Shown piece by piece: positions 6,801 to 40,252 of a DNA stretch of 43,157 nt. The stretch's first letter is position 1; every line of letters begins with the position of its first letter. Origin of the DNA: a virus (taxonomy: Duplodnaviria > Heunggongvirae > Uroviricota > Caudoviricetes); IMG/VR virus record IMGVR_UViG_3300043399_000676; one strand, written 5' to 3'. The notes beneath the pieces were generated by a model. It ran no database searches. It worked only from the letters and a program-made list of their open reading frames with translations, and was not told the DNA's origin. A program made the position numbers and the translations under genes.

Positions 6801-8922
6801 AGGACCAGATGGAGTAAGTGGTTATTCAGGGGTATCTGGATTTAGTGGTTTAAGTGGGAGATCAGGTTATTCTGGTATCTCAGGATACAGTGGTATCTCA
6901 GGGTCGGGTACTTCGGGATATAGCGGTGTATCTGGGTTTAGTGGAAGATCAGGATACAGTGGCGTCCAAGGGGCGAGTGGATATTCAGGTGTGTCAGGAC
7001 AAAACGGGACATCTGGGTTTAGTGGAAGATCAGGTTATAGTGGTGTATCCGGGTCACAAGGTATTTCAGGAAACAGCGGTTATTCAGGGGTAAGTGGAAT
7101 AAGCGGGTATTCAGGTGAACCTGGACAAATTGGTGAAAGTGGAATAAGCGGGTATTCAGGTGAACCGGGGGCGACTGGTGAATCGGGATTTAGTGGATAC
7201 AGTGGAATAAGCGGTAGGTCAGGTTATTCGGGTATCAGTGGATACAGTGGATTGTCAGGGTCAACCGGATCAAGTGGATTTAGTGGTATCAGTGGATACA
7301 GCGGAGTATCTGGCTATTCTGGAAGATCAGGATACTCAGGCGTTAGCGGTGCAACTGGCTCTTCTGGATTTAGTGGATTGTCAGGATCAATTGGTGTATC
7401 TGGTTACTCAGGCATAAGTGGTGCATCTGGATATTCAGGCATAAGTGGTTATTCAGGCGCATCTGGCACATCAGGATGGAGTGGTTACTCAGGTGCAAGT
7501 GGTGCATTCGGTACATCAGGATGGAGCGGATATTCAGGTATAAGTGGTTTTAGTGGTGCATCCGGCGTATCTGGCTGGAGTGGTTATTCAGGTGTCAGTG
7601 GATACAGTGGCACATCTGGTACATCAGGTATAAGTGGTTACTCAGGTATAAGTGGTTTTAGTGGCACATCTGGTACATCAGGTATAAGTGGTTATTCAGG
7701 TGTCAGTGGTTTTAGTGGTGCATCCGGCGTATCTGGCTGGAGTGGTTATTCAGGTGTCAGTGGTTTTAGTGGTGCATCCGGCGTATCTGGTTGGAGTGGT
7801 TATTCAGGTGTCAGTGGTTTTAGTGGTGCATCCGGCGTATCTGGTTGGAGTGGTTATTCAGGTATAAGTGGTTTTAGTGGTGCATCCGGCACATCAGGAT
7901 CATTAGGTATTAGTGGTTATAGCGGAATAAGCGGAGTTAATGGCGAATCAGGTGCATCAGGGTATAGTGGCGTATCCGGATCACAAGGACTTTCAGGGTT
8001 CAGTGGTTTTAGTGGACAAGGTCTATCTGGGTTCAGCGGATATTCAGGTCAGAGCGGTATAGGAAACAGCGGATATTCAGGTGTTTCAGGAGAAATTGGC
8101 GTTTCCGGCTACAGTGGCGCAAGTGGGTATTCGGGTGTTTCCGGCTACAGTGGCGCAAGTGGGTATTCGGGTGTTTCTGGTTATTCTGGGGCTGGATATA
8201 AAGCAACATCCAACACTTTAATGTCTGCTGGATTGGGAGCCAAGAGCTTTAACGTAAACGTAGTGGGTGCTTATTCGGTAGGAACTAGAGTACGAGTGGC
8301 CTCAGTCGCTCTCCCTGACGCTGAGTTCTTTGAAGGGGTGATTACGGAAATAAGTTCAACTACTATTTTCGTAGATTCGGATTATTTCAAGGGAGGCGCT
8401 ACTGTTTCATCTTGGACTGTTTCGGTAGCAGGTGAAATAGGACAAAGCGGGTATTCAGGTAGGTCAGGGTATAGTGGTATAAGTGGTTACTCAGGATCTA
8501 GTGGGTATAGTGGTTACTCAGGATCTAGTGGGTTTAGCGGGGTTAGTGGTTACTCAGGTACTACTCCTACTACAATGACAGTTGCAGTATCTGATGAGAC
8601 AACTGCGTTGACAACAGGTACAGCGAAAATTACATTCAGAGCACCGTTTGCAATGACTCTAACTCAGATTCCTAGAGCGTCACTATCTACTGCGTCAACA
8701 TCAGGGGCGGTTACAGTTGATATCAATGAAGCAGGAACAAGTATTCTTGGGGCAAATAAGCTATCAATTGATGCTAATGAAAAAACAAGCACTACTGCAA
8801 CTACCCCAACTACCCTTGCTGATACATCAATTGCCGATGACGCAGAAATAACAATCGATATTGATGGTGCAGGCACAGGTGCTGCTGGATTAAAAGTAAC
8901 TATGTACTACTTAAAGACTTGA
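3826..8922 (+). CDS. Giant Gly-X-Ser collagen-like fibre protein (1698 aa)
   Basis: GTG start. Four blocks of GYS/GFS/GIS/GVS/GAS/GTS/GWS/GRS triplets (roughly 400 by hand estimate). Blocks are separated by two SxTxPxNPxxGxIWxDxxTGxxYFYFxDGxSSQWV modules and two paralogous ATSxTxxxxGxGxK beta modules. Globular C-terminal domain (SDETTALTTG...GLKV). Confidence 0.85.
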   Translation: MSNKKFNAVDGVSVGHDPVIGVIDSNGNWTGNVIPVTKGGTGTSSLPANAVILGNNTSSVGSVLPGNSGNLLVSDGSTWVSQNVGNLSGFSGVSGRSGYSGISGFSGASGRSGYSGISGFSGASGYSGVSGYSGVSGYSGVSGYSGVSGFSGYSGASGTSGISGYSGINGASGVSGFSGYSGISGANGTSGVSGYSGASGTSGTSGWSGYSGASGTSGVSGYSGASGSSGRSGYSGASGVSGYSGASGTSGISGYSGVSGYSGYSGRSGYSGVSGYSGVSGWSGYSGVMYTIVPSDTAPLNPVDGQIWFDSTTGKSYFYFNDGSSSQWVLFADPTVTDGQDGESGYSGISGVSGLSGISGYSGTSGRSGYSGEVGLSGTSGYSGSSGRSGYSGVSGYSGTIGISGFSGYSGASGASGRSGYSGVSGYSGASGTSGISGYSGASGVSGYSGASGTSGISGYSGASGISGYSGASGSSGRSGYSGQPGTSGISGYSGISGASGTSGISGYSGVSGFSGASGISGVSGYSGASGTSGISGYSGVSGYSGVSGYSGASGTSGISGYSGVSGFSGASGTSGISGYSGVSGYSGASGTSGISGYSGVSGFSGASGTSGISGYSGVSGASGTSGISGYSGVSGFSGASGRSGFSGYSGASGTSGWSGYSGVSGFSGASGWSGYSGVSGEIGESGISGYSGVSGYSGTSGTSGVSGYSGVSGTSGTSGISGYSGESGQSGSSGYSGKSGYSGISGYSGYSGRSGYSGVSGATGTSGWSGYSGWSGYSGASGVSGWSGIDGESGISGYSGISGWSGYSGESGTSGISGYSGISGYSGSVGPSGWSGYSGVSGVSGFSGARGAISITTSTSPPLNPIEGDIWIDEDTGIQYFYFQDGDSSQWVELANAGISGFSGLSGIGDNYATSSSTSLTIGTGTKTLTVETGLAYTPGQAVIIAFDGSNYMSGTVSTYNVSTGQLVANITDTLGLGTYSTWSVNLTGTPGPDGVSGYSGVSGFSGLSGRSGYSGISGYSGISGSGTSGYSGVSGFSGRSGYSGVQGASGYSGVSGQNGTSGFSGRSGYSGVSGSQGISGNSGYSGVSGISGYSGEPGQIGESGISGYSGEPGATGESGFSGYSGISGRSGYSGISGYSGLSGSTGSSGFSGISGYSGVSGYSGRSGYSGVSGATGSSGFSGLSGSIGVSGYSGISGASGYSGISGYSGASGTSGWSGYSGASGAFGTSGWSGYSGISGFSGASGVSGWSGYSGVSGYSGTSGTSGISGYSGISGFSGTSGTSGISGYSGVSGFSGASGVSGWSGYSGVSGFSGASGVSGWSGYSGVSGFSGASGVSGWSGYSGISGFSGASGTSGSLGISGYSGISGVNGESGASGYSGVSGSQGLSGFSGFSGQGLSGFSGYSGQSGIGNSGYSGVSGEIGVSGYSGASGYSGVSGYSGASGYSGVSGYSGAGYKATSNTLMSAGLGAKSFNVNVVGAYSVGTRVRVASVALPDAEFFEGVITEISSTTIFVDSDYFKGGATVSSWTVSVAGEIGQSGYSGRSGYSGISGYSGSSGYSGYSGSSGFSGVSGYSGTTPTTMTVAVSDETTALTTGTAKITFRAPFAMTLTQIPRASLSTASTSGAVTVDINEAGTSILGANKLSIDANEKTSTTATTPTTLADTSIADDAEITIDIDGAGTGAAGLKVTMYYLKT
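4198..4269 (+). repeat. 18-nt perfect tandem repeat x4 (ggatattccggtgtcagt; GYSGVS)
   Basis: Identical units at 4198, 4216, 4234 and 4252. Confidence 0.9.
7687..7890 (+). repeat. 54-nt near-perfect tandem repeat x3 plus a partial (SGYSGVSGFSGASGVSGW)
   Basis: Units at 7687, 7741 and 7795 (one synonymous change) and a partial unit at 7849. Confidence 0.9.
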
Positions 8923-17263: not shown

Positions 17264-18541
17264 ATGCCGTTAGATTTTCCGTTATCACCATCAGTAGGAC
17301 AAATTTATACCTTTGGGGTTAGAACTTGGAAGTTCAACGGTAAAGGGTGGGAACTATTAGGAGCAAACAGTGGCTTCAGTGGTTATTCGGGAGCATTTGG
17401 AACAAGCGGATTTTCGGGTGTCAGTGGTGCAACTGGTACATCAGGATGGAGTGGTTACTCAGGCGCATCTGGCTTTAGCGGCATAAGCGGATTTTCGGGT
17501 AGATCAGGATATAGCGGCATAAGCGGTTACTCAGGCGCATCTGGTACATCAGGTATAAGTGGTTACTCAGGTATTTCTGGTGTTAATGGTGCATCTGGCT
17601 TCAGTGGCTTCTCTGGATATTCAGGCGTTAGTGGTGCAACAGGTGGCACAGGTGGTACAGGCGCATCTGGCTTTAGCGGTTTCAGTGGCTTCTCTGGATA
17701 TTCAGGCGTTAGTGGTGCAACAGGTGGCACAGGTGGTACAGGCGCATCTGGCTTTAGCGGTTTCAGTGGCTACTCGGGTATCTCTGGTGTTAATGGTGCA
17801 TCTGGCTTTAGTGGCTTCAGCGGTTACTCTGGTGTTAGCGGATACAGTGGTGTTTCAGGTTCAGGTACTTCGGGTTATTCGGGCGTTTCAGGTGCAAGTA
17901 CGTCTGGGTTCTCTGGAATAAGCGGATTTTCTGGGACTTCGGGTTTTTCTGGAATAAGCGGATTTTCTGGGACTTCGGGCTTCAGTGGTGTATCAGGCAT
18001 AGGTACCTCAGGGTATAGTGGAAAATCTGGATATTCTGGGATTAGCGGATATAGCGGAGCTCCTATAACAGTACTGGACGATACCACGACTTCAACTACG
18101 GTATATCCAGTTTGGAACCCCGCAACCAGTGGTTCTTTGACTCCCAAAGTAAGTTCTACTAAACTATCCTTCATTCCATCAACTGGAGTACTAACATTAG
18201 TTGCAGTTGATTATGGTGCTAATGTACAACAAGGATTCGGGACGTTTACGACTGCAAACACAAATCAAATTATTTTGGATGCAATCTCTAGTTCTACCTA
18301 CAGATCAGCAAAATATACTGTTCAGCTTTCAAGTGGAACAGCATACCAAGTGACGGAATTGAGTACTATACATGACGGAGCAAACGCATACATCGTTGAA
18401 TATGGGGAAAATAAAGCAAATACAGCATCTGCATTGGGATCATTTGACGCAAGTGTCAGTTCAGGTAATATGAACTTGTTGTTTACACCGATAAATTCTT
18501 CTACGACTGTTAAGTTTTTTAGAACGGCGATTGACATATAA
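17264..18541 (+). CDS. Gly-X-Ser collagen-like fibre / adaptor protein
   Basis: MPLDFPLSPSVGQIYT..W.FNG.GW anchor. About 78 GXS-type triplets including an 81-nt duplication with GGT triplets. C-terminal YRSAKY domain. Confidence 0.8.
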   Translation: MPLDFPLSPSVGQIYTFGVRTWKFNGKGWELLGANSGFSGYSGAFGTSGFSGVSGATGTSGWSGYSGASGFSGISGFSGRSGYSGISGYSGASGTSGISGYSGISGVNGASGFSGFSGYSGVSGATGGTGGTGASGFSGFSGFSGYSGVSGATGGTGGTGASGFSGFSGYSGISGVNGASGFSGFSGYSGVSGYSGVSGSGTSGYSGVSGASTSGFSGISGFSGTSGFSGISGFSGTSGFSGVSGIGTSGYSGKSGYSGISGYSGAPITVLDDTTTSTTVYPVWNPATSGSLTPKVSSTKLSFIPSTGVLTLVAVDYGANVQQGFGTFTTANTNQIILDAISSSTYRSAKYTVQLSSGTAYQVTELSTIHDGANAYIVEYGENKANTASALGSFDASVSSGNMNLLFTPINSSTTVKFFRTAIDI

Positions 18542-20748
18542 TGACAACTAATGCATTTTCAGCTAAAGATGGAATAAAGGTAGACAGCCAAGCCGTTATT
18601 GACGAAAACGGTAATTGGATAGGACCAGGGACGAATATTACAGGTCCACAGGGCGTACAAGGGGCGCAAGGACAACCGGGGATACAGGGTTCGCCGGGTT
18701 CACAAGGAGCGCAAGGCTTATCTGGTATTCAAGGACAACCAGGTGTCGCAGGAAGACAAGGAGCACAAGGCCCTCAGGGAGTTCAGGGTGTAATTGGAGC
18801 ACAAGGCCCTCAGGGAGTTCAGGGTGTAATTGGAGCACAAGGCCCTCAAGGCTCTCAAGGCCCTCAAGGAGCACAAGGTGCAGCAGGAATACAGGGACAA
18901 GCTGGAATACAGGGGGTCCAAGGATCAACTGGTGCACAAGGCCCTCAGGGAGCACAAGGTCAAATTGGACCAACTGGAGCACAAGGTTCTCAAGGACCGG
19001 CTGGCGTACAAGGACCGGCTGGCGTACAAGGAGCTCAGGGAGTACAAGGACCGGCTGGCGTACAAGGGACACAAGGGTCAGTTGGTGCAGTTGGTCAGCA
19101 GGGTTCACAAGGACCGGCTGGTTTTCAGGGAGTACAAGGACCATCTGGTGCACAAGGTGCACAGGGTTTAGTTGGGCCAGTCGGTGCACAAGGTGCACAA
19201 GGTGCAGTTGGCGTTCAAGGAGCGATTGGTGCAACTGGCGCGCAAGGACCACAAGGTGCACAAGGTGCAGACGGCGCGCAAGGACCACAAGGTGCACAAG
19301 GTTCGACTGGGATACAGGGCGCGCAAGGACCATCTGGTGCTCAAGGAGCACAAGGTCCTCAGGGAGTTGCAGGCGTGCAAGGACCATCTGGTGCTCAAGG
19401 TCCACAGGGAGCATCAAGTTCAGTGGCTGGCGCTCAAGGACCGGCAGGGATACAAGGTGCACAAGGAAATCCCGGAGCACAAGGCGTTCAGGGTTCAACA
19501 GGACCAACAGGAGCAACTGGTCAACCCGGCGTAGCTGGTGTCCAAGGAGCACCTGGGTTTCAAGGAGCACAGGGGTTAACTGGATTTCAAGGATTTCAAG
19601 GAAACCCTGGAGCACAAGGCCCTCAGGGAACACAAGGCGTTGCGGGAGTACAAGGTGCTGCTGGTAGACAAGGAGCACAAGGTCCTGCTGGGTTTCAGGG
19701 CGCGCAAGGTCCGCAAGGCGCGCAAGGAGCGCAAGGGCCAACTAGTGCAGTCAGCGGCGCACAAGGAGCGTCTGGTAGACAAGGAGCGCAAGGTCCGCAA
19801 GGAGCGCAGGGGGCAATTGGTCCACAAGGAGCACAAGGAGTTCAGGGTGCAGCTAGCGCAGTTAGTGGAGTACAAGGTTATCAAGGAAGACAAGGGGTTC
19901 AAGGACCAATTGGTCCACCTGGTGCTGCTGGACGACAAGGAGCACAAGGGTCAGCTGGTGCTCAGGGTGTACAAGGAGCGCAAGGCCCACAGGGAGCGCA
20001 AGGAATACAAGGACCACGCGGACCACAGGGAGCAATTGGAGTTCAGGGTTCTATAGGGGCACAAGGAGCTCAAGGAGCGCAAGGAAACTTTGGAGTAGGG
20101 GGCGCTCTTGGAGCACAAGGGGTTCAGGGGGCTGCAGGGCCTCCAGGGCCTGCAGGCATTCAAGGCACAGCAGGTGCACAAGGGGTTCAGGGGGCTGCAG
20201 GGCCTCCAGGGCCTGCAGGCATTCAAGGCGCAGCAGGTGCACAGGGTGCACAGGGTGCAGTTGGAACAGCAGGTGTAACAGGCGCACAAGGACCACAGGG
20301 TTATCAAGGACCTGCATCTACTACATCAACGCCCAATGTTGGTTCTTTAAATGTAGGGTCGGCAACAAATGCACCAACTGGGCATATTAGGGCCTCTGGC
20401 GACATCACTGCATATTATTCGGATAAGCGACTAAAAACTAATATTATTTCTCTTACTAATTGTTTAGAAAAAGTTCAATACTTATCGGGAGTTTATTACA
20501 CACAAAATAAACTGGCAGAAAAATATGGGTACAACGATTATTCAAGACAAATTGGATTGATATCACAACAGGTTGGGACTTTTGCTCCGGAGATAGTTAA
20601 AGAAGCTCCTATAAATAGTTCAGATGACACTGGAGAGAAATTCATGACGATTCAGTACGATAAGTTAATTCCAGTTTTAGTTCAAGCAATAAAAGAACAG
20701 CAGTTGATTATTGCATCAATGATTAAACAGATTGAGAAGGGCGAATAA
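18541..20748 (+). CDS. Collagen fibre protein 1 (Gly-X-Gln) with peptidase S74 intramolecular chaperone
   Basis: Collagen at aa 35-592 (179 triplets plus 3 interruptions). [10 protein letters not shown]74 motif at aa 627 and C-terminal coiled coil [16 protein letters not shown]. Confidence 0.9.
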
Positions 20749-20750
20749 GG

Positions 20751-22961
20751 TTGGCTAAGAATATATTTACCATAAAGAACGGACTTACAGTAGGTACTTC
20801 CGCTTCAATCAACTCGTCCGGAGAATGGATAGGTCCTACTACTAATATTATGGGACCTCAGGGGCCTGCTGGTGCACAAGGCCCTCAAGGTGCTCAAGGA
20901 GCATCTGGAATACAAGGATCTCTTGGCGTACAAGGGCCAGTTGGTGCTCAGGGAATACAAGGAACACAAGGGCCAGTTGGTGCTCAGGGAATACAAGGAG
21001 CACAAGGTTTGGCTGGTGCACAAGGAGCACCCGGTGCTCAAGGAGTACAGGGAGCTAATAATGTAGCTGGATCTCAAGGTGCAACTGGAATTCAAGGAAG
21101 TGTTGGGGCCCAAGGGAGACAGGGAAATCCAGGCATTCAAGGTACAACTGGAGCACAAGGAGTACAGGGAGCAGCAAGTTCAGTTGCAGGGGTCCAAGGC
21201 CCAGTTGGCGCACAAGGAGCATCTGGCGCACAAGGAGTTCAAGGTCCACAAGGACCAATTGGCGCACAAGGAGTCCAAGGACCGCAAGGACCAAATGGTA
21301 TTCAGGGTGCACAAGGGTCAATTGGTGCCCAAGGACCGCAAGGACCAATTGGTGCCCAAGGAGCCCAAGGAGCCCAAGGGGCAGCAAGTTCAGTTGCAGG
21401 GGCACAAGGCCCTACAGGAATTCAGGGATCTGTTGGTGCACAAGGAGTTCAAGGAGCACCTGGACCAATTGGACAGCCTGGTGAACAAGGTGTAGCAGGT
21501 GCTCAAGGACCGGCAGGGATACAAGGTGCGCAAGGTTTACTAGGAGTTGCAGGGGCACAAGGAGCAGTAGGGCCAATTGGGGCACAAGGAACACAAGGCG
21601 TTGCGGGAGTACAAGGTGCTGCTGGTAGACAAGGAGCACAAGGTCCTGCTGGGTTTCAGGGAAGACAAGGGCTAAATGGACCATCTGGGTTTCAAGGGAT
21701 ACAAGGAGCAGCAAGCTCAGTTACTGGACCACCGGGGTTTCAAGGAGTACAAGGAGCACAAGGCCCTCAGGGAGCACAAGGAGCACCTGGTCCACAAGGA
21801 GCGCAAGGTCCGCAAGGAGCAACGGGAGCAGTAGGATCGACTGGTCCAACTGGAGTGCAGGGTAGTGCTGGTGCTCAAGGAGTCCAAGGAGCAATTGGTC
21901 CACAAGGAGCACAAGGTCCGCAAGGTGTCGCAGGGGTGCAAGGTGCAATTGGAGCAACGGGTGCACAAGGTCCTGCGGGGTTTCAGGGAATTCAAGGATC
22001 AATTGGTCCTGACGGTCCTAATGGAATCGGTGGAGCAACAGGCTCACCTGGCGCACAGGGAAGTGTAGGTGCACAAGGAGCACAAGGACCTCAGGGAGCG
22101 CAAGGAGCGCAAGGAGCAATTGGTGCACAAGGACCTCAAGGAGTTCAAGGAGTAAACGGAAATCCTGGACCACAGGGATTTCCTGGAGCTACTACCGCAG
22201 GCTTCCAAGGAATTCAAGGATTACCTGGTGCTCAAGGCGTTCAAGGCGTTCAAGGGCGAGCAGGGCTTCAAGGAGTACAAGGACCTACTGGGGCACAGGG
22301 TTTTCAAGGTCGAGCAGGATTTCAAGGTCGAGCAGGCGTTACTGGCGCACCTGGATTTCAAGGAAGACAAGGAGTACAAGGACCGGCTGGTCCTTCGGGC
22401 GTTACTGGCGCACCTGGATTTCAAGGAAGACAAGGAGCACAAGGTCCTGCTGGCTTTCAAGGAAGGGCAGGTGTGCAAGGCACACAAGGACCTGCCGGTC
22501 CGCAGGGTCCCCAAGGAGTTACTCAATCGCTTGGTATTTCGGTGTCATCATTGGGAGTAAATACACCGGCAGGTCCTTCGGGAGACTTGAGAGCAACTAA
22601 TGACATCATTGCATATTATTCAGATATTAGACTGAAAGACAACTTAGAAACTATAAAAGACCCAGGTTCAAAACTGTATACGTTAAACGGTGTATTTTAT
22701 ACACAAAACAAATTCGCAGAAAAATTTGGATATAAAAACTATAGTCAACAAGTAGGATTGATTGCACAAGAAGTGCAGAAAGTAGTACCGGAGGTCGTTA
22801 AGCCTGCACCATTTGATGTAAGTGGGCATGATGGTAGTAAAACTGGTGAGCACTATCTCACTATCCAATATGAAAGATTAATACCTTTGATTGTTGAAAC
22901 TATTAAAGAACAACAACGCGAAATAGAACGTTTACAAGATTTACTTAACAGAGAAAGCTAA
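20751..22961 (+). CDS. Collagen fibre protein 2 (Gly-X-Gln) with peptidase S74 chaperone
   Basis: TTG start with aagg upstream. Collagen at aa 35-591 (175 triplets plus 5 interruptions). AYY-SDIRLK at aa 624. Confidence 0.9.
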
Positions 22962-25162
22962 TGGCAGCAAGTGTTTTTATAATTAAGAATGGTCTAGTAG
23001 TAGGAAACACCTCAGTTATAAATGCAGCTGGTGTTTGGGTAGGATCACCTTCAAATTATGCAGGAGCACAAGGTGCTGCTGGATTTCAAGGTGCACCTGG
23101 CGTACAGGGCGTACAAGGCTCCCCGGGCGTACAAGGCTCCCCGGGTGTACAAGGCGCACAAGGAGTAACAGGTGCCCCAGGAATACAGGGTTTCATTGGT
23201 ACTGCGGGTATTACAGGAGCACAAGGTTTAGTTGGAGTACAAGGCGCCTCAGGAGCACAAGGTGCCCAGGGTGCACCTGGGTTTCAAGGAGTTCAAGGTG
23301 CACCAGGAGCACAAGGTGTCCAAGGCCCTCAGGGAGCACAAGGTGCTCAAGGTCTTCAGGGGGCACCTGGTGCACAAGGAGCGCAAGGAGTTCAAGGCGC
23401 ACCAGGTGTTTTAGGAGCACAAGGACCTCAGGGCGCGCAAGGAGCAGCAAGTTCAGTTGCAGGAGCACAAGGCGCACAAGGCGCACCTGGATATCAAGGA
23501 GTGCAAGGATCGGCAGGTCCTAATGGGGTACAAGGAGCACAGGGAGCGGTTGGTCGGCAGGGAGTACAAGGTCCTGCTGGGTTTCAGGGTGCACAAGGTC
23601 CACAAGGCGCACAAGGCCAGCAAGGTGCAGTTGGAGCACAAGGAGCGCAAGGCGCTACTAGCGCAGTTGCTGGTTTTCAAGGAAGACAAGGAGCACACGG
23701 TCCTGCTGGTTTTCAAGGAAGACAAGGAGTACAAGGACCTACTGGGGCACAGGGTGCACAAGGAGCAGCAAGTTCAGTTGCAGGTGCACAAGGACCTACT
23801 GGGGCACAGGGTGCACAAGGTCCGCAAGGTTATCAAGGCCTAGCAGGTCCGCAAGGCGCGCAAGGCGCGCAAGGCGCTTCTGGGGCACAAGGTCCGCAAG
23901 GAGCATCTGGTAGACAAGGAGCGCAAGGCGCGCAAGGAGCGCAAGGAGCGCAAGGATCATTAGGAGCTACCGGCGTTCAAGGGGCAGCAAGTTCAGTTGC
24001 AGGTGCACAAGGAGAAACAGGCAGACAAGGAGTACAAGGACCTGCTGGTTTCCAAGGACCTACAGGACAACCCGGTGCTCAAGGAGTTCAAGGGGCAGCA
24101 AGTTCAGTTGCTGGTTTTCAAGGAGCAACAGGCAGACAAGGGTATCAGGGGTTGACCGGAGTTCAAGGAGCACCTGGTCCACAAGGTCCTCAAGGGGCAC
24201 AAGGAGTTATTGGTGCACTCGGAGCACAGGGAAGACAGGGCATACAAGGGCCACCTGGGCCACCTGGGCCACCTGGTATCCCAGGGCCACCTGGTGCGCC
24301 CGGAGTCCAAGGAGCACCCGGAGCACCCGGAGCACAAGGTGCTCAAGGTGTCCAAGGTGCAACAGGAGTAAACGGAGCACAAGGAGCACAGGGTGTACTA
24401 GGAGCACAAGGACCACAGGGTGCCGCTGGTGCGCCCGGAGTCCAAGGATTTCAAGGAATTCAAGGCGATATAGGTACAACAGGACAACCTGGTGTATTGG
24501 GAGCGCAAGGCCCACAGGGAGCGCAAGGCCCACAGGGAGCGCAAGGGATACAAGGAGCACAAGGCCCACAGGGAGCGCAGGGCGCAGCCGGCGCACAAGG
24601 CCCGCAAGGAATACAAGGAGCACAAGGCCCACAGGGAGCGCAGGGCGCAGCCGGCGCACAAGGCCCACAAGGAGTGCAAGGGACATCGGGTACGATAATA
24701 ACGCCTAGTGGGCCACCTGGCTTTCAAGGTGCACCTGGACCTGCTGTAACGCAAGTCTCTGCACTTGGGGTCAATACACCCGCAGGACCAACCGGGGTTA
24801 TTAGAGCAACTGGTGATGTCACTGCATTCTACTCAGATGCTAGATTAAAAACCATTATTGGTCCTATTGATAATCCTCTACAGCGGCTGCAAAAAATAGA
24901 AGGGGTATATTATCAGCCTAATGATCTAGCAAAGTCGTTTGGTTTTGATATCTCGATGAGAAATATAGGATTTATTGCACAACAAATTGAAGAAATATTA
25001 CCAGAGGCAGTTAGAATTGCACCGTTTGACGCAAATAAATTTGGTCATAGTAAGTCGGGTGCTAAATATTTGACCGTGATATACTCAAAGGTAGTTCCGT
25101 TGTTAATTCAAGCACTAAAAGAACAGAAAGGACAAATTGATTATATCCGATCAAAACTGTGA
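22961..25162 (+). CDS. Collagen fibre protein 3 (Gly-X-Gln, richest in Y-position Pro) with peptidase S74 chaperone
   Basis: TAATG overlap with the upstream gene. Collagen at aa 35-595 (173 triplets plus 6 interruptions), including [27 protein letters not shown] at aa 625. Confidence 0.9.
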
Positions 25163-25169
25163 GGATACA

Positions 25170-25745
25170 ATGAAAGGCGAATGGTGCTATTTCAAATCTT
25201 ATTTTGACAAGAATACATGCAATGAAATACTAGAAAAAGCAAAACTGATAGAAACGCAAGATGCAGTTTTGGGTTTAAACAATGACCCGCAGGTCAACTT
25301 TGAATACAGACGCAGCAAAGTTCGTTTTTTAAACAGCGATGATTGGAGATTTAAGGATCTGTTTACTGACCTGTGGAAAACTGCCATAATGGCAAATCGA
25401 GATTTCTTTAATTTTCATATAACCAAGTTGGATTTTGTCCAACTTGCTGAGTATGATGCTTCGTATCAAGGAGAGTACAAAGAACACCATGATGTTTTTT
25501 GGCTAAATAATGACCCTGATTACCATAGAAAGATGACAGCGGTCATTCAACTATCAGATCCGAACGATTACGAAGGCGGAGATTTAGTTGTGACTGAAAC
25601 AGTTACTCCGCCTGGGCCTACTGAGTTTAGGGATCAAGGTACAATTATATTTTTCCCTTCATTTCTGAGACACAAAGCAACTCCTGTTATCAGAGGTACT
25701 CGTTATAGTATCGCTGCTTGGTTCGAGGGTCCCAAATGGCGATGA
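25170..25745 (+). CDS. 2OG-Fe(II) oxygenase, prolyl-4-hydroxylase-like (PKHD type)
   Basis: HxD (EHHD), RKMTAVIQLSDP.DYEGGDL, distal His (LRHKATPV) and 2OG-binding Arg (TRYSIAAW). Start moved to ATG 25170, which has a gagga SD. Confidence 0.85.
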   Translation: MKGEWCYFKSYFDKNTCNEILEKAKLIETQDAVLGLNNDPQVNFEYRRSKVRFLNSDDWRFKDLFTDLWKTAIMANRDFFNFHITKLDFVQLAEYDASYQGEYKEHHDVFWLNNDPDYHRKMTAVIQLSDPNDYEGGDLVVTETVTPPGPTEFRDQGTIIFFPSFLRHKATPVIRGTRYSIAAWFEGPKWR

Positions 25746-26458
25746 AAATTGAAAGATTTGATGAGCCATTCACCTATTATCTTATTGATAACTATTTGGA
25801 TGAAGATACGGCTAGGAAACTAGAATCAGAGTTTATTCCATTTGATTCTAGCAAATGGTTTACCTATGACAATCCTGTTGAAAACAAGAAAGCATTGAAC
25901 AGTTGGTACGAGTTCCCTCCTACTACTTATCAGTACATGACTTATCTTAACTCAAATGAACATGTTGAATCACTAGAACGATTAACAGGAGAATCAAAGT
26001 TATATGCTGATCCTGGGCTACATGGTGCAGGGTGGCATATACAAGGCAATGGCGGACTGTTAAATGTTCACTTAGACTACTGCATTCATCCCAAGCTAAT
26101 GAAAAAGCGAAAGTATAACTTAATTGTTTATCTTTCTGATTGGAATAAAGAATGGGGAGGAAATCTAGAACTGTGGAGTCATGATAACTTGACTAATCAA
26201 CCAAAAGAAAAAGTTGTTACGGTTGAGTGTAAATTTAATCGTGCAGTTTTATTTGATGCCTCTATGAACTCATGGCATGGATTTTCTGAACCGATCAATT
26301 GTCCTCCTGACAAATTTAGAAAGAGCATTGCGATGTATTATTTGGTTGATTCAGAAGAAGGTGATAGTGACAGAAAACGCGCATTGTATTCACCTCGTAA
26401 AGAACAACAAAACAACAAAGAAGTTTTAGATTTCATTAAAAAACGTGTAATAGGTTGA
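25742..26458 (+). CDS. 2OG-Fe(II) oxygenase (2OG-FeII_Oxy_3 type)
   Basis: GAGWH....GG.LNVHLD, NLIVYLS.W..EWGGNLELW, FNRAVLF...SWHGF and RKSIAMYY. Start at 25742 gives an ATGA overlap. Confidence 0.85.
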   Translation: MKIERFDEPFTYYLIDNYLDEDTARKLESEFIPFDSSKWFTYDNPVENKKALNSWYEFPPTTYQYMTYLNSNEHVESLERLTGESKLYADPGLHGAGWHIQGNGGLLNVHLDYCIHPKLMKKRKYNLIVYLSDWNKEWGGNLELWSHDNLTNQPKEKVVTVECKFNRAVLFDASMNSWHGFSEPINCPPDKFRKSIAMYYLVDSEEGDSDRKRALYSPRKEQQNNKEVLDFIKKRVIG

Positions 26459-26461
26459 TTA

Positions 26462-27103
26462 ATGCACTATACTGCTGCGCTAAGTGCTAGTAGATTCTAT
26501 AGCACTTACTTTGAACACATTAAAAATCCAAACGCATATGTAGTCGAGATTGGGAGTCAAGACGTTAATGGGTCTCTTAGAGAATTATGCCCGTCTAAAA
26601 ATTATACAGGAGTTGATTATGTGCATGGTAAGAATGTGGATGTAGTACTGACCAATCCATATAAATTGCCCTTTGGCGACCAATCTACAGATATAGTCAT
26701 TTGCAGTTCTGTGTTTGAACACTCAGAAATGTTTTGGGTCACTTTCTTGGAGATCATGCGTATCCTTAAACCACATGGATTGTTTTATCTTAGCGCTCCA
26801 TCTAATGGAGACTTTCATAGATGGCCAGTTGATTGTTGGCGATTTTATCCTGATTCAGGAAAAGCGATGGTCACTTGGGCAAAGTATAACAACATAAATT
26901 CTGTTCTATTGGAATCCTACATAGGAAAACAAGACCAAGACATTTGGAATGACTTTGTAGCAGTTTTTCTTAAAAATGAATCATTCTTGAGTAAATACCC
27001 CAATCGAATATTGCATCAAATAAATGATTACACGAATGGTGTAATCAATGGAATGCCAGACTTTTTAAATTACGATCCTATCCCAGAAGACAGAAGACGA
27101 TGA
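26462..27103 (+). CDS. Class I SAM-dependent methyltransferase
   Basis: VVEIGSQDVNGSLR, YTGVD, DIVICSSVFEHSE and ILKPHG...SAP...HRWPVDCWRF. Confidence 0.85.
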   Translation: MHYTAALSASRFYSTYFEHIKNPNAYVVEIGSQDVNGSLRELCPSKNYTGVDYVHGKNVDVVLTNPYKLPFGDQSTDIVICSSVFEHSEMFWVTFLEIMRILKPHGLFYLSAPSNGDFHRWPVDCWRFYPDSGKAMVTWAKYNNINSVLLESYIGKQDQDIWNDFVAVFLKNESFLSKYPNRILHQINDYTNGVINGMPDFLNYDPIPEDRRR

Positions 27104-29514
27104 AAATTGCTATTTTTTATCATCTAGCCCAGCTTAACGATTGGGAGATGTTGTATCAAGAGCAGATGCAAGCGTTGATTGTAAGTGGTTTGTATGATCA
27201 ATGTGAGTTTATTCATGTGGGTATAAATGGTACTGAACCATTGCCACTCTCTTTGAGTAAGGTGAGATATAAGTACAATCCTGAATTGGTTCTTGAAGGG
27301 TATACCTTAACTGATCTATGGAATTTCTGTAGCGAACACCATGACTATAAGGTGTTGTATTTCCATTCAAAAGGTGTTTCTTGGAATAAAGACAATGCGG
27401 CTGAGACTAACGTTCCTAACTTATTGTTTAAAGTAAAACAATGGAGACTTAGTTTAGAATTTTTCACGATTCACAAGTGGAAACAAAATATTCAGCTATT
27501 AGATCAGTATGACTGCGTTGGATCAGAGTTTCAAACACAAACTATATTAGGTAGTCACGACTTTAAGGAGTTTCATTCTCCTCATTTTAAAGGAAACTTT
27601 TGGTGGGCTAACTCATCTTATATCAGAACACTTGATCCATTTTACCTTTTAGATGAAACAGGTGGCTGGACAAGATGGCGTTCTGAACATTGGATCGGTA
27701 CAGGGAATCCCAAAGTTTACAATTGGTATAATTTGGGAAGAGATAAGACACACTATATAGATGAATATAACGTAGAGAACTATTCTAAGGCAAATTTAAA
27801 AATGTCAAATAAACAAGCAAAGATCGTGATGATCACGATGTTTAAAAATGAATCCAAAGTAATGCGACGGATGCTAGAGTCCTGTTACAAGTACATTGAT
27901 TTTTGGGTAATCCAAAATAATGGATCAACTGACGGAACGGAAGTTATAGTAAAGGAGTTTTTCGCTGAAAAGGGTATTCCTGGTGTGCTTTATGATGTAG
28001 AGGAAGGATGGGTTAATTTTGGATGGAACAGAGATCATCTAATTAGGACATGTCAAACGATTGATCATGGATGTGATTGGATTCTCAAAATGGACTGTGA
28101 CGAAACACTTGAAGTAGATGATAACTTCGATTGGTCACCGTTGGACAACAAGAATACAGAGTCTTTTCATATTGCAGCAGTAGCAGGGACTGCAATCTAT
28201 TATCGAGCATGGATGTATAATGCTAACTTAAGATGGGGATTTAATCATGATCCTTGTCATGAAACTGTGTATAAGATAGAAGCGGATGGTTCAAAGAATG
28301 AGAGCTTTTCTAGATATGACTTGCCTCCAGGATTTAGGCAAATAGGATTCAATGAAGGACAAAGCTGGTCAGACCCAGCTAAGTTTATCAGTCATGCATT
28401 GATTCTTGAAGAAAAGATGATTAAAGAAGGTAACATGCTAACTGACCTGTATCACTTTTGGTACATAGGTAAAAGTTACTTTGATGCAATTCCTTCAAGT
28501 GCATTTCCCTTGAAAGAATCTCAACAACGTGAATATGCAAGAAGGACAATCTATTACTTTGAACAGTATGTAAACTATATTGAAAAGACCGGGCAATCAT
28601 ATGGCATCGATGAGATGAGTTATATGGCTATGTTGTTTTCAGCCGAATCTCATCTATTTTTACAGAACGATGAGGCAGCAATTGTTTGCTATAAACTATC
28701 GGAAAAATATGCGCCAAGACGAAACGATCACCTTTTTGGTTTAGCAAACATATACAAGAGACTAGGTCGTTATGAAGAGATGTTAGCAGTAACTTCAAGA
28801 ATGATGTCACCTGAAAGAAAAAATCCCTTTCCTGATTATAGCTCATTCATTGATACTGCATTATATTACGACAGTCCAACTGGAAGAGTTCAAGAACTTC
28901 ATAACTTTGCACTAAGCAAACAGGAGAAACCTATGGAAACAACAATTTTTACTTACAGCAACGTTCAACGACCTAGATTATTTGTAGTTGATAATTTTTA
29001 TGCAAACCCAGATGCAGTACGAGAGTTTGCACTTGCACAAGAATTTCAACAAGATTTGCGTTGGTACAAGGGACTTAGGACAACCACAGTATACAGGCCT
29101 CCTGGAATCAAAGAAGCATTTGAAAGGATTATAGGACAAAAAATAACGGTATTCGAAGAACATGGGTACAACGGGGTATTCCAACTGTGTAATGCACAAG
29201 ATCCTCAAGTTTACCACTACGATCAGCAAAGTTGGGCTGCTATGATATACTTGACTCCTAATGCACCGATTGAGAGTGGAACAAGACTACATCGCTCTAG
29301 GTTAAACGGAACAAGAGATTCCCGTGAGTCAAATGTAGACGATGCATTTAACGGGGATTTTTATGACGGTACGAAGTTTGATGTTGTCGATAGCGTAGCT
29401 AACGTATACAACAGATTAATTATTATGGATGCTAGGTGCATTCATTCAGCCGGTCCTTACTTTGGAAATAATGAGACAAACTCAAGGCTAACACATCTAT
29501 TTTTCTTTGACTAA
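27100..29514 (+). CDS. Three-domain fusion: GT-like domain + GT2/TPR glycosyltransferase + 2OG-Fe(II) oxygenase (DUF6445-like)
   Basis: aa 1-234: VLYFHSKG and HFKGNFWWA. aa 235-611: MITMFKNE..MRRMLESC, NNGSTDGT, W.NFG.NR, WILKMDCDE, then helical repeats. aa 612-804: FVVDNFY.NPDAVREFAL, HYD, WAAMIYLTP and IHSA..YFG...RLTHLFF. Confidence 0.75.
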   Translation: MKIAIFYHLAQLNDWEMLYQEQMQALIVSGLYDQCEFIHVGINGTEPLPLSLSKVRYKYNPELVLEGYTLTDLWNFCSEHHDYKVLYFHSKGVSWNKDNAAETNVPNLLFKVKQWRLSLEFFTIHKWKQNIQLLDQYDCVGSEFQTQTILGSHDFKEFHSPHFKGNFWWANSSYIRTLDPFYLLDETGGWTRWRSEHWIGTGNPKVYNWYNLGRDKTHYIDEYNVENYSKANLKMSNKQAKIVMITMFKNESKVMRRMLESCYKYIDFWVIQNNGSTDGTEVIVKEFFAEKGIPGVLYDVEEGWVNFGWNRDHLIRTCQTIDHGCDWILKMDCDETLEVDDNFDWSPLDNKNTESFHIAAVAGTAIYYRAWMYNANLRWGFNHDPCHETVYKIEADGSKNESFSRYDLPPGFRQIGFNEGQSWSDPAKFISHALILEEKMIKEGNMLTDLYHFWYIGKSYFDAIPSSAFPLKESQQREYARRTIYYFEQYVNYIEKTGQSYGIDEMSYMAMLFSAESHLFLQNDEAAIVCYKLSEKYAPRRNDHLFGLANIYKRLGRYEEMLAVTSRMMSPERKNPFPDYSSFIDTALYYDSPTGRVQELHNFALSKQEKPMETTIFTYSNVQRPRLFVVDNFYANPDAVREFALAQEFQQDLRWYKGLRTTTVYRPPGIKEAFERIIGQKITVFEEHGYNGVFQLCNAQDPQVYHYDQQSWAAMIYLTPNAPIESGTRLHRSRLNGTRDSRESNVDDAFNGDFYDGTKFDVVDSVANVYNRLIIMDARCIHSAGPYFGNNETNSRLTHLFFFD

Positions 29515-29515
29515 T

Positions 29516-30784
29516 ATGAATCAATACAAATTTAGTATTATCACACCGGAGCATAATCCTAATAACGCTCCTTTTTTGCTAGAGCTATATAAAAGTATAG
29601 CTAATCAAACCTATTCTAACTGGGAGTGGATTTTATATTTAAACAATGGTTGTTCACCCGATGATCTCCCTGAACTCATTCTTATGGATGACCGAGTTAT
29701 GATCTATCATTGCTTGGATGCAGCACATAACATTGGTGCAATAAAAAATGCAGCATTTAATTTAGGAACAGGTGATGTTTTGGTTGAAGCAGATCATGAT
29801 GATATCTTAACTCCTGATTGTTTAGAAGAGTTGAACATTGCGTTCCAAGATCAACAAGTTGGGTTTGTTTTTAGTGACAATGCAGTTCTTCACATGAAGG
29901 ATGAGTTCTCACCATTCTCTTCTACTTATGGATGGACTCATAGGATGTTTGAGTGGCAAGGAAAACAGTTATATGCAATGAATAGCTTTGAACCTTCTAG
30001 TCATTCAGTTGGGTATATTTGGTACGCACCTGATCATGTTAGATCATGGAGAACTTCTATTTACAAAGAGATCGGCGGCCATAACCCTGATCTTTCTGTA
30101 TGCGATGACCATGAATTGATGATTCGTACATATCTTACTACAAACATGAAGAGGATTCCCAAGGTTCTATACATCTACAGAATCACTGGGGATAATACTT
30201 GGTTAGCTAGAAATCAAGAGATACAAACCAAAACAGTAGAACTTTTTAATCAATATGCAATGAAGCTAGCTGAACGTGATGCAGAAAAAAGAAATCTTCT
30301 TAAGGTTGATATAGGCGGGGGGATAAACTCACTGCCAGGGTATATTACACTAGATCAGAGAGAAACAGCCCACGTTGTATGTGATTTAAATAACGGTATT
30401 CCTTTGCCCGATAACTCAGTGGGAGTTTTGAACGCAAGTCATATTATTGAACATCTCCGAGATCCTATTAAAACTATGCGTGAGATTCACAGAGTACTTG
30501 CACATGGAGGATGGGCATTTATAGAAGTTCCAAGCACAGACGGGAGAGGAGCGTTTCAAGATCCAACTCATGTTAGTTATTGGAATGAAAATAGCTTCCT
30601 GTATTATACTAACTCGTATTTTGCAAACTTTATTGAGAACAAAGATATTCGATTCCAAGAGTTTAGAAGAGAGACATGGTTTCCTAATGAATTCTTGCGT
30701 AACATGAACGTTTGTGTTACTACTGCTTGGTTGGTTGCCCACAAGCCAAATGGAAATACTTTGCCTCACGGTATGTATATATGA
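29516..30784 (+). CDS. GT2 glycosyltransferase fused to a SAM methyltransferase
   Basis: FSIITPEHN, NQTYSNWEWIL, EADHDD (DxD) and CDDHELMIR; C-terminal KVDIGGG and ASHIIEHL..LAHGGW. Probable start is ATG 29516. Confidence 0.85.
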   Translation: MNQYKFSIITPEHNPNNAPFLLELYKSIANQTYSNWEWILYLNNGCSPDDLPELILMDDRVMIYHCLDAAHNIGAIKNAAFNLGTGDVLVEADHDDILTPDCLEELNIAFQDQQVGFVFSDNAVLHMKDEFSPFSSTYGWTHRMFEWQGKQLYAMNSFEPSSHSVGYIWYAPDHVRSWRTSIYKEIGGHNPDLSVCDDHELMIRTYLTTNMKRIPKVLYIYRITGDNTWLARNQEIQTKTVELFNQYAMKLAERDAEKRNLLKVDIGGGINSLPGYITLDQRETAHVVCDLNNGIPLPDNSVGVLNASHIIEHLRDPIKTMREIHRVLAHGGWAFIEVPSTDGRGAFQDPTHVSYWNENSFLYYTNSYFANFIENKDIRFQEFRRETWFPNEFLRNMNVCVTTAWLVAHKPNGNTLPHGMYI

Positions 30785-30954
30785 CATCTTATATTCATCT
30801 AGTTAAGATCGATGACGTTGAAAAGGAACGTAGGGTAGAAATATGCAATAAGTGTGAGCACTTAAGCAAACTAAAAGTTTGTAAGAAATGTGGTTGCCCA
30901 ATTCAAACTAAAACTTGGTTAAAGAAAGCAAAATGCCCTATCGGTAAGTGGTAG
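30781..30954 (+). CDS. Small Cys-rich protein (DUF6171-like)
   Basis: CxxC-x8-CxxCGC-x6-K-x6-CPIGKW. Start at 30781 gives an ATGA overlap. Confidence 0.7.
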   Translation: MTSYIHLVKIDDVEKERRVEICNKCEHLSKLKVCKKCGCPIQTKTWLKKAKCPIGKW

Positions 30955-31005
30955 AAAAGTTAATCTGTCTAGTTTTGTTGATACATACAAATCAAAAGAT
31001 TAGAT

Positions 31006-34000
31006 ATGATTACAGGCCCAGTAAAATTTGATTTCATGGCAGGTGGAGTAAAACGCACTTCTATGGCGTTTTGGTGTGTCATGATGAAGCGAGAGTTGTT
31101 TGACGAGATTGGACTTTTAGATGAAATCTTTTCTCCTGGTATGGGAGAAGATGGTGATTTCTCTATACGAGCCGAAATGGCAGGTCATTCTTTAGTTCAA
31201 GTTCCTAATAATTTTAGTCATATGTTCGGGGAAGGCAAGTTAGACAACGAGGTCTATGCTTTCCCTATTTACCATAAAGGTTCGGGAACATTTGGATGGG
31301 GTGACTATGGTGGTATAATTGAACGAAACCAAAAAATTCTAGACGAGAGGTATGGGTTGAATCAAAAAACTTACGAAATAGATTCCAGGTATCAAACCAA
31401 TAAAGAAATTAGATACTTTGATGATTTGCAGAATGCTGACGAGTTTCAGAATGAAGTGTATGAATATGCAAGATTTCTTGCAGAACAGAACTCCTACAAA
31501 ACAGTATTAGATATAGGTTGTGGCTCTGGATTCAAATTGAGAAAATACTTCGACGCTTCGAAGTACGATTGTTATGGGCTAGATTTAGACAAAACTTGTT
31601 CGGTTTTGCGAGAGAAGTATAAAGATGTAAACTGGATATCATATGATATCGATAATGAAACTGGAGCCCCGAGTGAACTTCCACCGCAGGTTGATCTTGT
31701 GATATGTTCAGATGTAATAGAACACCTGCGAGATCCTGATAGGTTGATGTCTTTCTTAAAAGGGATTGATTATAAAATCTTATTGCTATCAACACCGGAC
31801 AGGGATATTATTTCATCTAGGAATGGTAAGTTGTTTGGACCACCGGATAACGCTCATCATATTCGTGAATGGAATAAAGATGAACTTAATAGATATCTAA
31901 GTAAGCATGTAAAGGTAACTGGGCAAGCAGTTATAAATGAAGCACAAGCAACTCAAATGGCGGTTTGTATTCCAGCAAAAACTCAAGTTTCCATAGTAAT
32001 TCCAACATACAATCATTGCGATGATCTACTGAAACCTTGCATTGAAAGTATCCAACAATACACAGACATGGTAAATGTTGAGTTAGTAATAGTTGCGAAT
32101 GGATGTTCTGATAATACACGAGAATATGTCCAAACTCTAGAAGGTAACGTGAAGTTAATATGGGTAGATGAAGCCATTGGCTACACAAAGGCGACTAACT
32201 TAGGAATTAAAGCAGCAACAGGGGAAACAATTGTTCTGATGAACAACGATGTTTTGCTGTTGTCACAATATAAGAATTTTTGGTTAGACGTATTGATGAA
32301 CGCACTTGTTCCTACTAATGTAGGGATTGTTGGTGTTTTGGAAAACTATGATATGTACGCCGACGCCAAATTTCCTATATTTTTCTGCGTTGCTATCAAG
32401 AGAGAAGTGTTTGATAAAATTGGATTACTAGATGAAGCATATTCTCCTGGATATGGAGAAGATATTGACTTTACTCTTAGAGCCAAGCAAGCAGGATTTG
32501 ATTACATTATCCCCGTCGCAACTAGATTCGTCGATGGACAGAATGTAACTGAATACCCTATTTGGCACAAGAACAATCAAACGTTCAAAGATGTTCCAGA
32601 ATATTTGAGTATCATCCAAAGGAACAATCGGTTGTTATATGAGAAATACAATCCCAGATTCAAGTCGGCTGATTTCAGTATTGTCATTCCTACTTATAAT
32701 CATTTGTATGACGCATTGAAACCATGCATTGAATCATTGTTTAACTACACTGATCTTTCAAATAAAGAAGTAATTGTAGTTGCAAATGGTTGCACTGACG
32801 ATACAAAGCCGTTTTTAGACTCGATATCTGATAAGGTTCGTGTAATTTGGTTTGATGACCCGATTGGGTACATCAATGCGGTAAACGCCGGTATTGCCGT
32901 TAGTGTTGGTAAACACATCATTTTGTTAGATAATGACTGTGTGCTTTTACCTCAATCAGTTGATGATTGGGTGAATATTCTTCATGCACCATTTGTAAAT
33001 AGTGACAAGGTCGCTGCATCAAGTCCATTTGCTCATGAATATGAAGACATGGGGTTTGTTTTGCATTCAGGATGCACAATGTATAGGGCGGATGTACTGC
33101 GTCAAATTGGTATGTTTGATACTACATATCATCCTGGATACTTTAGTGACTCAGATGTTGCAATGAAAATATGGAAAGCAGGATATGAATGTGTAGAAGT
33201 ACCAAAACGTAACGATGATAAGCCCTACAATAACAATCTATTCTTAATCAATTTTCCAGTGATGCATTTGGGAAATGTTCAGACAATGGATAAAGTTAAG
33301 GACAATGAAATCGTCAAAAAGAACAGAGAGATTTTATATTCAAGATATGGAAAGAAAAAACAAATGAAAAAATATAGCATAGTAATCCCTACTTATAATC
33401 ATTGCGATGACCTACTAAGACCTTGCCTTGAGAGTATTGAACGTTACTCAGATATGAGTCAGGTTGAGGTTATTGTAGTTGCAAATGGTTGTGTGGATAA
33501 TACTAAGGAGTATGTAGAGAGTTTAAACCCTGAAAACTTTAAGTTAATCTGGGTAGATGAAGCTATTGGCTATACAAAGGCAACTAACTTAGGCATTAAA
33601 GCAGCAACAGGTGAATATGTTGTGCTTTTGAACAATGATACTGAAATTCTACCTTCAGAAAAAAACGCATGGCTAAACATCTTGGAGGAACCCTTTAACA
33701 CAAAAAAGAAGGTAGGACTGACGGGCCCCTTGCAACTTTTTGATGATTATGCAGGTTCGCCAGTCCTTATCTTTTTCTGTGTAATGATTAAACGTACCCT
33801 ATTTGAAGAAATTGGGTATTTGGATGAAATCTTTACACCAGGTGGCGGTGAAGACATTGATTTTACTGTTCGCGCAAACCTTGCAGGATATGAAGCGATT
33901 CAGGTTACTCAGACCACTTATAACGGTGTAACTAATGTAGGTAACTTTCCGATTTGGCACAAAGACAATAAGACGTTCGGCGAAATCCCTGAATACACGA

Positions 34001-35223: not shown

Positions 35224-35224
35224 T

Positions 35225-39718: not shown

Positions 39719-40252
39719 ATGGTGAATGTTAAATCATTCAAGCTATACCTTTTTCCTGTTTTGTTTGTGTTAGGAATGACTTTTACACATGACAATTCAG
39801 GGGTACGAGCAAATACCCGCTCATTGGATACCTACCTTGTAGTAGGTAAACCAGTAAACAAAAAAGAACTAGATTGCCTTGCAAAGAATATTTTCTTTGA
39901 AGCCAGAGGAGAAGTATACTCAGGTCAAGTAGCAGTAGCTAGAGTTGTAATGAATAGAATCCATCATGGGTTCGGCGATAATACCTGTCAAGTCGTATAT
40001 CAGACTGACAGAAAGGGAAACGGTACACTATGCCAGTTTAGTTGGGTTTGTGAAAAACCCAAACGGCTAGATAAAAACGATCCCGCCTACATCCGAGCAC
40101 AGGATATTGCTTATCGAGTATTAGCATTCAATGCTTATTCAGACAGGGTTGATAAAAATGTTCTATTTTTTCATAGCAAACATGTAAATCCTAGATGGAG
40201 GTACAAACGCTTCAAGCAAATAGGAAATCACATTTTCTATGCTAAGATTTAA
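39719..40252 (+). CDS. Cell wall hydrolase, SleB / Hydrolase_2 family
   Basis: CLAKNIFFEARGE..GQVAVARVVMNR, C.VVYQ, CQFSW and IGNHIFY; hydrophobic N-terminus; taggag SD. Confidence 0.92.
   Translation: MVNVKSFKLYLFPVLFVLGMTFTHDNSGVRANTRSLDTYLVVGKPVNKKELDCLAKNIFFEARGEVYSGQVAVARVVMNRIHHGFGDNTCQVVYQTDRKGNGTLCQFSWVCEKPKRLDKNDPAYIRAQDIAYRVLAFNAYSDRVDKNVLFFHSKHVNPRWRYKRFKQIGNHIFYAKI

Follow-up and report, generated by a model that had tools for sequence, protein, structure and literature searches.

Three tandem, length-matched collagen-like genes in an uncultured T4-like phage: candidate chains of a heterotrimeric fiber

Introduction

Three adjacent genes for collagen-like proteins, at positions 18541–25162 of IMG/VR virus record IMGVR_UViG_3300043399_000676, raise the question of whether a phage might build one fiber from three different collagen chains, or three separate fibers of equal length. 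The stretch of DNA analyzed here (43,157 nt in all, and referred to below as the window) comes from a large uncultured T4-like phage and is a block of fiber genes on one strand. The three genes, designated A, B, and C in order of position, encode proteins of 735, 736, and 733 amino acids (aa). A preliminary sequence-only reading of the same DNA recognized the match in length and offered both explanations, a heterotrimer or equal-length homotrimers, with a lean toward the second.

In the heterotrimeric collagens of animals (collagen I, collagen IV) and in C1q, which is encoded by the tandem genes C1QA, C1QC, and C1QB, three different chains contribute collagen tracts that are equally long. Which chains combine, and in what register, is decided by a C-terminal non-collagen domain, which in procollagen is removed afterwards. 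Prokaryotic collagen-like proteins, for their part, have been reported as homotrimers (PMC8968730), and a literature search found no report of heterotrimeric phage or prokaryotic collagen. From the sequence comparisons described below, the favored reading is that A, B, and C would be the chains of a single collagen-like fiber, a defined 1:1:1 A-B-C heterotrimer, at an estimated probability of about 0.6.

Results and Discussion

Anatomy of the three chains

All three genes are on the + strand: A at 18541–20748 and C at 22961–25162, each with an ATG start, and between them B at 20751–22961, with a TTG start. From the collagen-like gene immediately upstream of A through to C, successive genes meet with junctions of −1, +2, and −1 nt. 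The chain lengths given in the sequence-only reading agree with the open reading frames, and its description of the N-terminus is borne out by direct reading of the translations: each chain begins with a plug of 34 residues (18541–18642 in A) in which F6, K9, G11, V14, I20, G24, W26, G28, and N32 are invariant, and Gly35 is the first glycine of the helix. The plugs fall into three classes, A having N1 (..NITG), B having N3 (..NIMGPQ), and C having N2 (..SNYAG).

The Gly-X-Y tracts are 558, 557, and 561 residues long in A, B, and C, exactly as first counted, and all match Pfam Collagen (PF01391; E = 8e-84, 2.5e-82, and 9e-79). That of A (18643–20316, residues 35–592) has 182 triplets and three four-residue interruptions, SSVA, SAVS, and SAVS, at slots 87, 123, and 135 (slots are defined in the next section); that of B (20853–22523, residues 35–591) has 180 triplets and five interruptions, NVA, SSVA, SSVA, SSVT, and TA, at slots 24, 37, 60, 96, and 149; and that of C (23063–24745, residues 35–595) has 179 triplets and six interruptions, at slots 44, 67, 79, 103, 115, and 181. 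The interruptions are not aligned between chains, as had already been seen. In the three tracts, Gln makes up 51% of Y positions, and charged residues are very few.

Most of the interruptions in 18643–24745 have the form GAA-SSVA-G (or SAVS, SSVT). They lie on a lattice of about 12 triplets, corresponding to a 111-nt repeat unit, whose phase differs by chain: 0 in B, 3 in A, and 7 in C. The Ser-rich motif could be a site of glycosylation.

A linker of about 30 residues separates each collagen tract from a C-terminal S74 intramolecular chaperone domain, which in A (20419–20745) runs from Ser627 to the end and is of class C2, in B (22620–22958) starts at Ser624 and is of class C1, and in C (24833–25159) starts at Ser625 and is of class C3. 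Pfam Peptidase_S74 (PF13884) matches residues 627–686, 624–684, and 625–685 at 33.8, 40.4, and 44.1 bits (cut-off 22). The same serines begin the cleavage motif S-D-x-R-L-K (SDKRLK in A, SDIRLK in B, SDARLK in C), with a Lys five residues past the Ser, and S-D-x-R-[LM]-K is found in every array member listed. If the chains are cut after this Ser, as in endosialidase, the mature products would be about 627, 624, and 625 residues long. Among solved structures, PDB entries 6F45 and 7DC3 (the latter the MYRF ICA domain) lie nearest to the C-domain. Apart from Collagen and Peptidase_S74, the three chains matched no Pfam families, neither PF07484 nor fibritin.

Conservation of triplet number

To compare tracts with different interruptions, each short interruption was counted as the nearest whole number of triplets: two, three, or four residues occupy one slot, and a single residue none. 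By this rule A, B, and C have 185, 185, and 185 slots, despite their three, five, and six interruptions at different places. Two scans of IMG/VR supplied another 23 non-redundant arrays (cited below by locus number), making 24 with the window, and their slots were counted by the same rule; a metagenome scan added no new complete arrays.

Slot numbers in these 24 arrays span 61–203. The median difference within an array is 1 triplet, 73% of pairs are no more than 2 apart, and 30% are identical, with an intraclass correlation of 0.985. When slot values are shuffled, the mean difference is 47.6 and the median 42, and the lowest of 20,000 shuffles gave 31; the match in length is far beyond chance. 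Examples from different parts of the range include 69/69/69, 99/99/99, 127/127/126, 166/166/167, and 202/202/203. Between gene classes, slot numbers are correlated at r = 0.996–0.997, and sister genomes show parallel changes: −16/−16 from L004 to L102, +116/+116 from L005 to L101, −20/−22 from L096 to L016, and +14/+14 from L006 to L010, where the gain in one chain requires at least two separate indels. Co-variation of paralogue lengths in relatives, which the sequence-only reading had named as a check, is thus strong, and this part of its proposal stands.

It is the number of slots that is conserved most closely. The mean within-array range is 2.2 in slots, as against 4.0 in residues divided by three (Wilcoxon P = 0.0003) and 5.4 in uninterrupted triplets; in L091, one chain with 26 extra residues still has 186 slots, to 188 and 187 for its partners.

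Equal length could also be selected in chains that never meet. Each gene might make its own homotrimeric fiber, either with all tips brought to one radius or with the fibers acting as a ruler for some dimension of the virion, and the three classes of N- and C-terminal domain could then keep the fibers apart and target them to three sites. This is possible but rather unlikely. A flexible rod of 50–175 nm would not need to match its neighbors to within 1 triplet, and the match is in slots, not in numbers of residues. The ruler version is in addition hard to square with the freedom of length change among sister genomes, which can have 86 or 202 slots: the chains may be of any length so long as they agree to about 1 triplet (0.9 nm), which fits a need to pair, and not a need to reach a fixed distance. 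No match to PHROG 1283 (the T4 gp29 tape measure), sought as a gauge of tail length, was found in five long related contigs.

A second alternative is free mixing, in which any combination of chains could trimerize (AAA, AAB, ABC, etc.), giving varied fibers, with equal triplet numbers needed for any mixture to fold. This explains the length lock as well, and it fits the two-gene arrays L006 and L010. It nonetheless seems distinctly improbable, for reasons that emerge from the Gln distribution and from the domain classes considered below.

In-register relations between chains

Co-assembly in the A-B-C heterotrimer would place each slot of one chain beside the same slot of the other two. Three kinds of relation between chains were found at zero offset, and these favor co-assembly, because chains in separate fibers give no reason for them.

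The first concerns interruptions. Pairs of interruptions in different chains that lie within 2, 3, or 4 slots of each other number 22, 30, and 39, where circular shifts lead one to expect 31.5, 45.1, and 58.6 (P = 0.017, 0.001, and 0.0002, respectively); most of the coincidences that do occur come from L014. That interruptions are not aligned is at first sight a point for separate homotrimers, and it was the basis of the original lean in that direction. The argument fails, since interruptions in different chains are not merely unaligned but avoid each other beyond chance. With the in-register relations taken together, the comparison points instead toward co-assembly.

The second is the placement of Gln. 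When arrays are pooled, offset 0 is the only one at which Gln at Y has a negative covariance between paralogous chains (−0.007 to −0.012); at other offsets the value is about +0.011. The zero offset has a z of −3.1 to −3.4 and ranks first of 61, and the result holds after six slots are trimmed off each end. Within the window, the levels at which 0, 1, 2, or 3 chains have Gln at Y number 5, 55, 103, and 22, against 12.8, 55.2, 79.2, and 37.8 expected. The deficit of all-Gln levels has P = 5e-5; moving the register by up to 4 slots either way gives no lower value, and among 6561 shift pairs the unshifted one ranks third. Over 21 arrays the mean z of the Gln signal is −0.95, with 15 negative, and Fisher's combined P is 4e-8. 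This under-dispersion, with two Gln of a possible three per level, is a property of the A-B-C combination, and as such speaks against free mixing of the chains. The third relation is that aromatic residues at X have their fewest inter-chain coincidences at offset 0.

Some arrays also carry larger breaks. In L089 (2818–7884), L003, and L019 (5778–13070), large non-collagen inserts of 131–234 aa break the tract midway, and do so in only one or two of the chains. In L003 (10413–13088), chain 2 has a 173-aa insert preceded by exactly 147 slots and followed by 32, and a 12-aa break lies at the same point in chain 1. Alignment of large inserts was considered as a further line of evidence, but it is exact in L003 only, not in L089 or L019, and was not used. 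Two chains of L089 have PA14/GLEYA lectin-type inserts in mid-tract, a hint that fibers of this family may bind glycans. The inserts do provide a point for separate homotrimers: in L003 and L089, the chain lacking a large insert has 3–4 more triplets, which would give equal physical length if the knob adds about 3 nm.

Age of the triplication

Conceivably the match in length is under no selection at all and is a neutral consequence of duplication or gene conversion in the recent past, or of the transfer of whole arrays. Interruption style is indeed genome-specific (SSVA in the window, PT in L002, SSIA in L104); N- and C-terminal classes have been re-paired, so that exchange within and between arrays does occur; and block transfer would carry three matched tracts together. 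This explanation is nevertheless very hard to credit. A maximum-likelihood tree of the linker and S74 regions has three old clades, C1, C2, and C3 (SH-aLRT 97, 91, and 97), with orthologues closer than paralogues; chain B of the window is 74% identical to its orthologue in L001. Two members of one C-domain clade are in no array. The three genes of the window share no long stretches of similar DNA, with none above about 79% identity over 68 nt, and X/Y identity between window paralogues is no higher in register than out of register. These two results rule out recent duplication or gene conversion. Overall, in-register similarity between paralogues is zero or negative. Block transfer, for its part, leaves the matching in the donor unexplained.

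Further, each chain has its own repeat unit, of 6, 12, or 36 triplets, and the totals still agree. In some of these units, 11 triplets are followed by PT, or by SSVA or SSIA; another is 19 residues long, with one extra residue per six triplets. The last is especially regular in the third genes of L091 (451–7186) and L093 (3468–9987), where a strict 19-residue unit (six triplets and one residue) is repeated about 25 times, with uninterrupted partners.

Across the arrays the N-terminal classes are N1 (..NITG), N2 (..S[SN]Y.G), and N3 (..NI[KR]GPQ), and they are paired with C-domains in two ways: N1-C1, N2-C2, and N3-C3, or N1-C2, N3-C1, and N2-C3, as in the window. The pairing differs even between the sister arrays L005 and L101, and still every complete array has one of each class. 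Comparison of L002, L003, and L091 with the window, L085, L095, L101, L104, and L114 finds that gene order differs as well. Such re-pairing shows domain-level shuffling that would have passed through the collagen tracts. Since classes are re-paired and yet one of each is kept, exchange must be frequent and mismatched products selected out. Over long divergence each genome has kept every one of the distinct N and C classes exactly once, a pattern that points toward a trimer of defined composition and is difficult to reconcile with free mixing, as are class-specific motifs such as SD[IV]RLK, found only in C1. All chains of that class have Ile or Val two residues past the cleavage Ser (for example at 22620–22637 in the window); the same residue in C2 and C3 is variable and often charged.

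Assembly of the proposed heterotrimer

If A, B, and C do form one fiber, its assembly might proceed as follows. The near-contiguous genes would be translated in a tightly coupled manner. The S74 domains C1, C2, and C3 would associate, picking one chain of each class and setting the register, and from this nucleus the triple helix would zip up toward the N-terminus. Self-cleavage at the conserved Ser-Lys site would then release the S74 domains, whose part would resemble that of the C-propeptides in animal procollagen. What remains would be a rod some 160 nm long, given 185 triplets of 0.86 nm, with a tip of about 30 residues per chain at one end and at the other a small three-part N-plug anchoring it to the virion. 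Its likeliest location is as a neck or whisker-type fiber, because in related phages the array sits where T4 has wac (fibritin), beside the neck genes.

The fuller form of this proposal is of a natural heterotrimeric collagen outside animals, in which diverged, self-cleaving S74 domains would act as removable propeptides that select the chains and set the register, and uncharged Gln complementarity would replace charge pairs, with about two Gln per cross-section and with staggered interruptions and aromatic residues. In this specific form it has perhaps an even chance of being correct.

Several points weigh against a heterotrimer. Some related loci have a single collagen-S74 gene, which must make homotrimers, and the 6F45 and 7DC3 entries each consist of three chains of one sequence. 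The staggering of interruptions between chains is unlike most in animal heterotrimers, and some arrays pair a chain having 9–27 periodic interruptions with an uninterrupted one. The length lock has exceptions: L001 (76/61/63), L093 (182/175/181), L019 (166/161/156), and L107 (128/128/92), the last a variant of L104 (128/128/127). Two of these four resemble the loss of whole repeat units, for which collapse during metagenome assembly could be the cause. L016, L102, and L104 lack the Gln signal or show the opposite one. No charge complementarity was found, with 5 and 16 opposite-charge pairs against 5.0 and 15.1 expected. Finally, the in-register tests were designed after the data had been seen, and the case for co-assembly is one of sequence comparison.

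Comparison with known systems

S74 domains in general are needed for trimer folding and are then cut off. K1F endosialidase, the T5 L-shaped fiber protein pb1, and S16 gp37 (PDB 6F45) all have, like A, B, and C, a C-terminal S74 domain with S-D-x-R-L-K. The trio differs in having three old, diverged S74 copies, one per chain, in one operon, on length-locked collagen. The collagen-like proteins Scl1 and Scl2 of Streptococcus and BclA of Bacillus, and the collagen-like phage tail fibers, likewise combine Gly-X-Y repeats with a flanking trimerizing non-collagen domain, and they share with the trio the lack of any obvious requirement for animal-type hydroxyproline. Unlike these proteins, which have been reported as homotrimers, the trio has a length lock and in-register complementarity between different chains, a Gln-rich Y position, and almost no charge.

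Animal heterotrimeric collagens resemble the trio in having distinct genes, equal tract lengths, and in-register sequence relations. Their terminal domains are not homologous to those of the trio, however, in which removal would be autocatalytic by way of S74, and in which interruptions are staggered instead of aligned. Known heterotrimers also have stabilizing charge pairing, whereas the trio has none.

A fiber made from three paralogues has a precedent in the virophage DSLV2, whose tail fiber is encoded by three consecutive paralogous genes in one orientation and is a 1:1:1 heterotrimer by co-purification and modeling (PMC12724248); its proteins are related to Synechococcus phage proteins (PMC12724248, J Virol 2025). 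At about 200 aa the DSLV2 proteins are gp37-tip-like, with the PF07484 collar domain and without collagen or S74; PF07484 is absent from the trio.

T4 fibritin (wac) has a similar plan, in which a long trimeric shaft is anchored by a small N-terminal domain and folds from a nucleus at the C-terminus, but it is a coiled coil with a foldon, encoded by one gene, where the trio has collagen and S74 in three. The trio is a fibritin analogue and not a member of that family. A resemblance between the N-plug and the fibritin N-terminus (IKNGEEILG vs. VKNGLTVG) was set aside as too short to test. The parts of the system are known, as collagen-like phage fibers and S74 chaperones; no mixed collagen helix has been described from outside the animals.

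Genomic context

The window encodes three further collagen-like proteins, at 3826–8922, 17264–18541, and 40249–42834 (− strand). The second (+ strand) is a 425-aa protein of the Gly-X-Ser class, whose stop codon shares 1 nt with the start of A; lacking an S74 domain, it falls outside the length-matched trio. The N-plug motif F..[KV].G..V......I...G.W.G, common to A, B, and C, also heads two structural proteins of 766 aa (1496–3796) and 1698 aa (3826–8922). The plug may be a general anchor, with five proteins sharing one kind of virion socket, to judge by this motif.

Directly downstream of C are two 2OG-Fe(II) oxygenase genes (25170–26458, + strand), which are kept beside the array in relatives; an internal ATG (MKGEW...) is the probable start of the first. 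The region that they open (25137–36205) continues with a methyltransferase, a GT2 plus DUF6445 gene, a methyltransferase-like gene, a 1405-aa enzyme with multiple glycosyltransferase and methyltransferase domains, and another GT2 gene. From its gene content it looks like a fiber-modification operon. Of these genes, the first oxygenase and a glycosyltransferase stay with the array in relatives.

In related IMG/VR contigs, the array and the same oxygenase and glycosyltransferase genes are followed by T4-type gp14 (PF11649), gp15 (PF16724), gp17 large terminase, and gp18 tail sheath. T4 gene order is 12, wac, 13, 14, 15, and the relatives' array is in the fibritin slot, between fiber genes and neck genes. 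In the window itself, further sugar-modifying genes follow the array, and the neck genes are not directly next. The nearest cultured matches are to T4-like cyanophages and pelagiphages. In the cultured-phage collection, the DNA of the flanking region had no near match and a 1380-aa neighbor had no protein match.

Toward the end of the window, an endolysin-like gene of 177 aa (39719–40252) meets the convergent 861-aa Gly-X-Ser collagen-like gene at 40249–42834 (− strand), and the guanine-cytosine skew reverses. Elsewhere, two metagenome contigs (L220 and L234) have single giant collagen-S74 genes of about 2,700–2,800 aa, with 730–800 triplets and regular breaks of 9–15 residues; their C-domains are distant relatives of the trio C-domain.

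Conclusions

The comparative data supply a rule, that triplet slots are conserved between the chains of an array, and a candidate code for pairing without charge. If the heterotrimer proves correct, it would join the virophage fiber reported in 2025 as a second case of three tandem paralogues making one fiber, and it would offer a simple recombinant route to register-defined heterotrimeric collagen in bacteria, something lacking in biomaterials work. It would also be a phage system in which three short, separable domains, able to remove themselves, choose a chain of each kind and fix the register in which the three are wound together.

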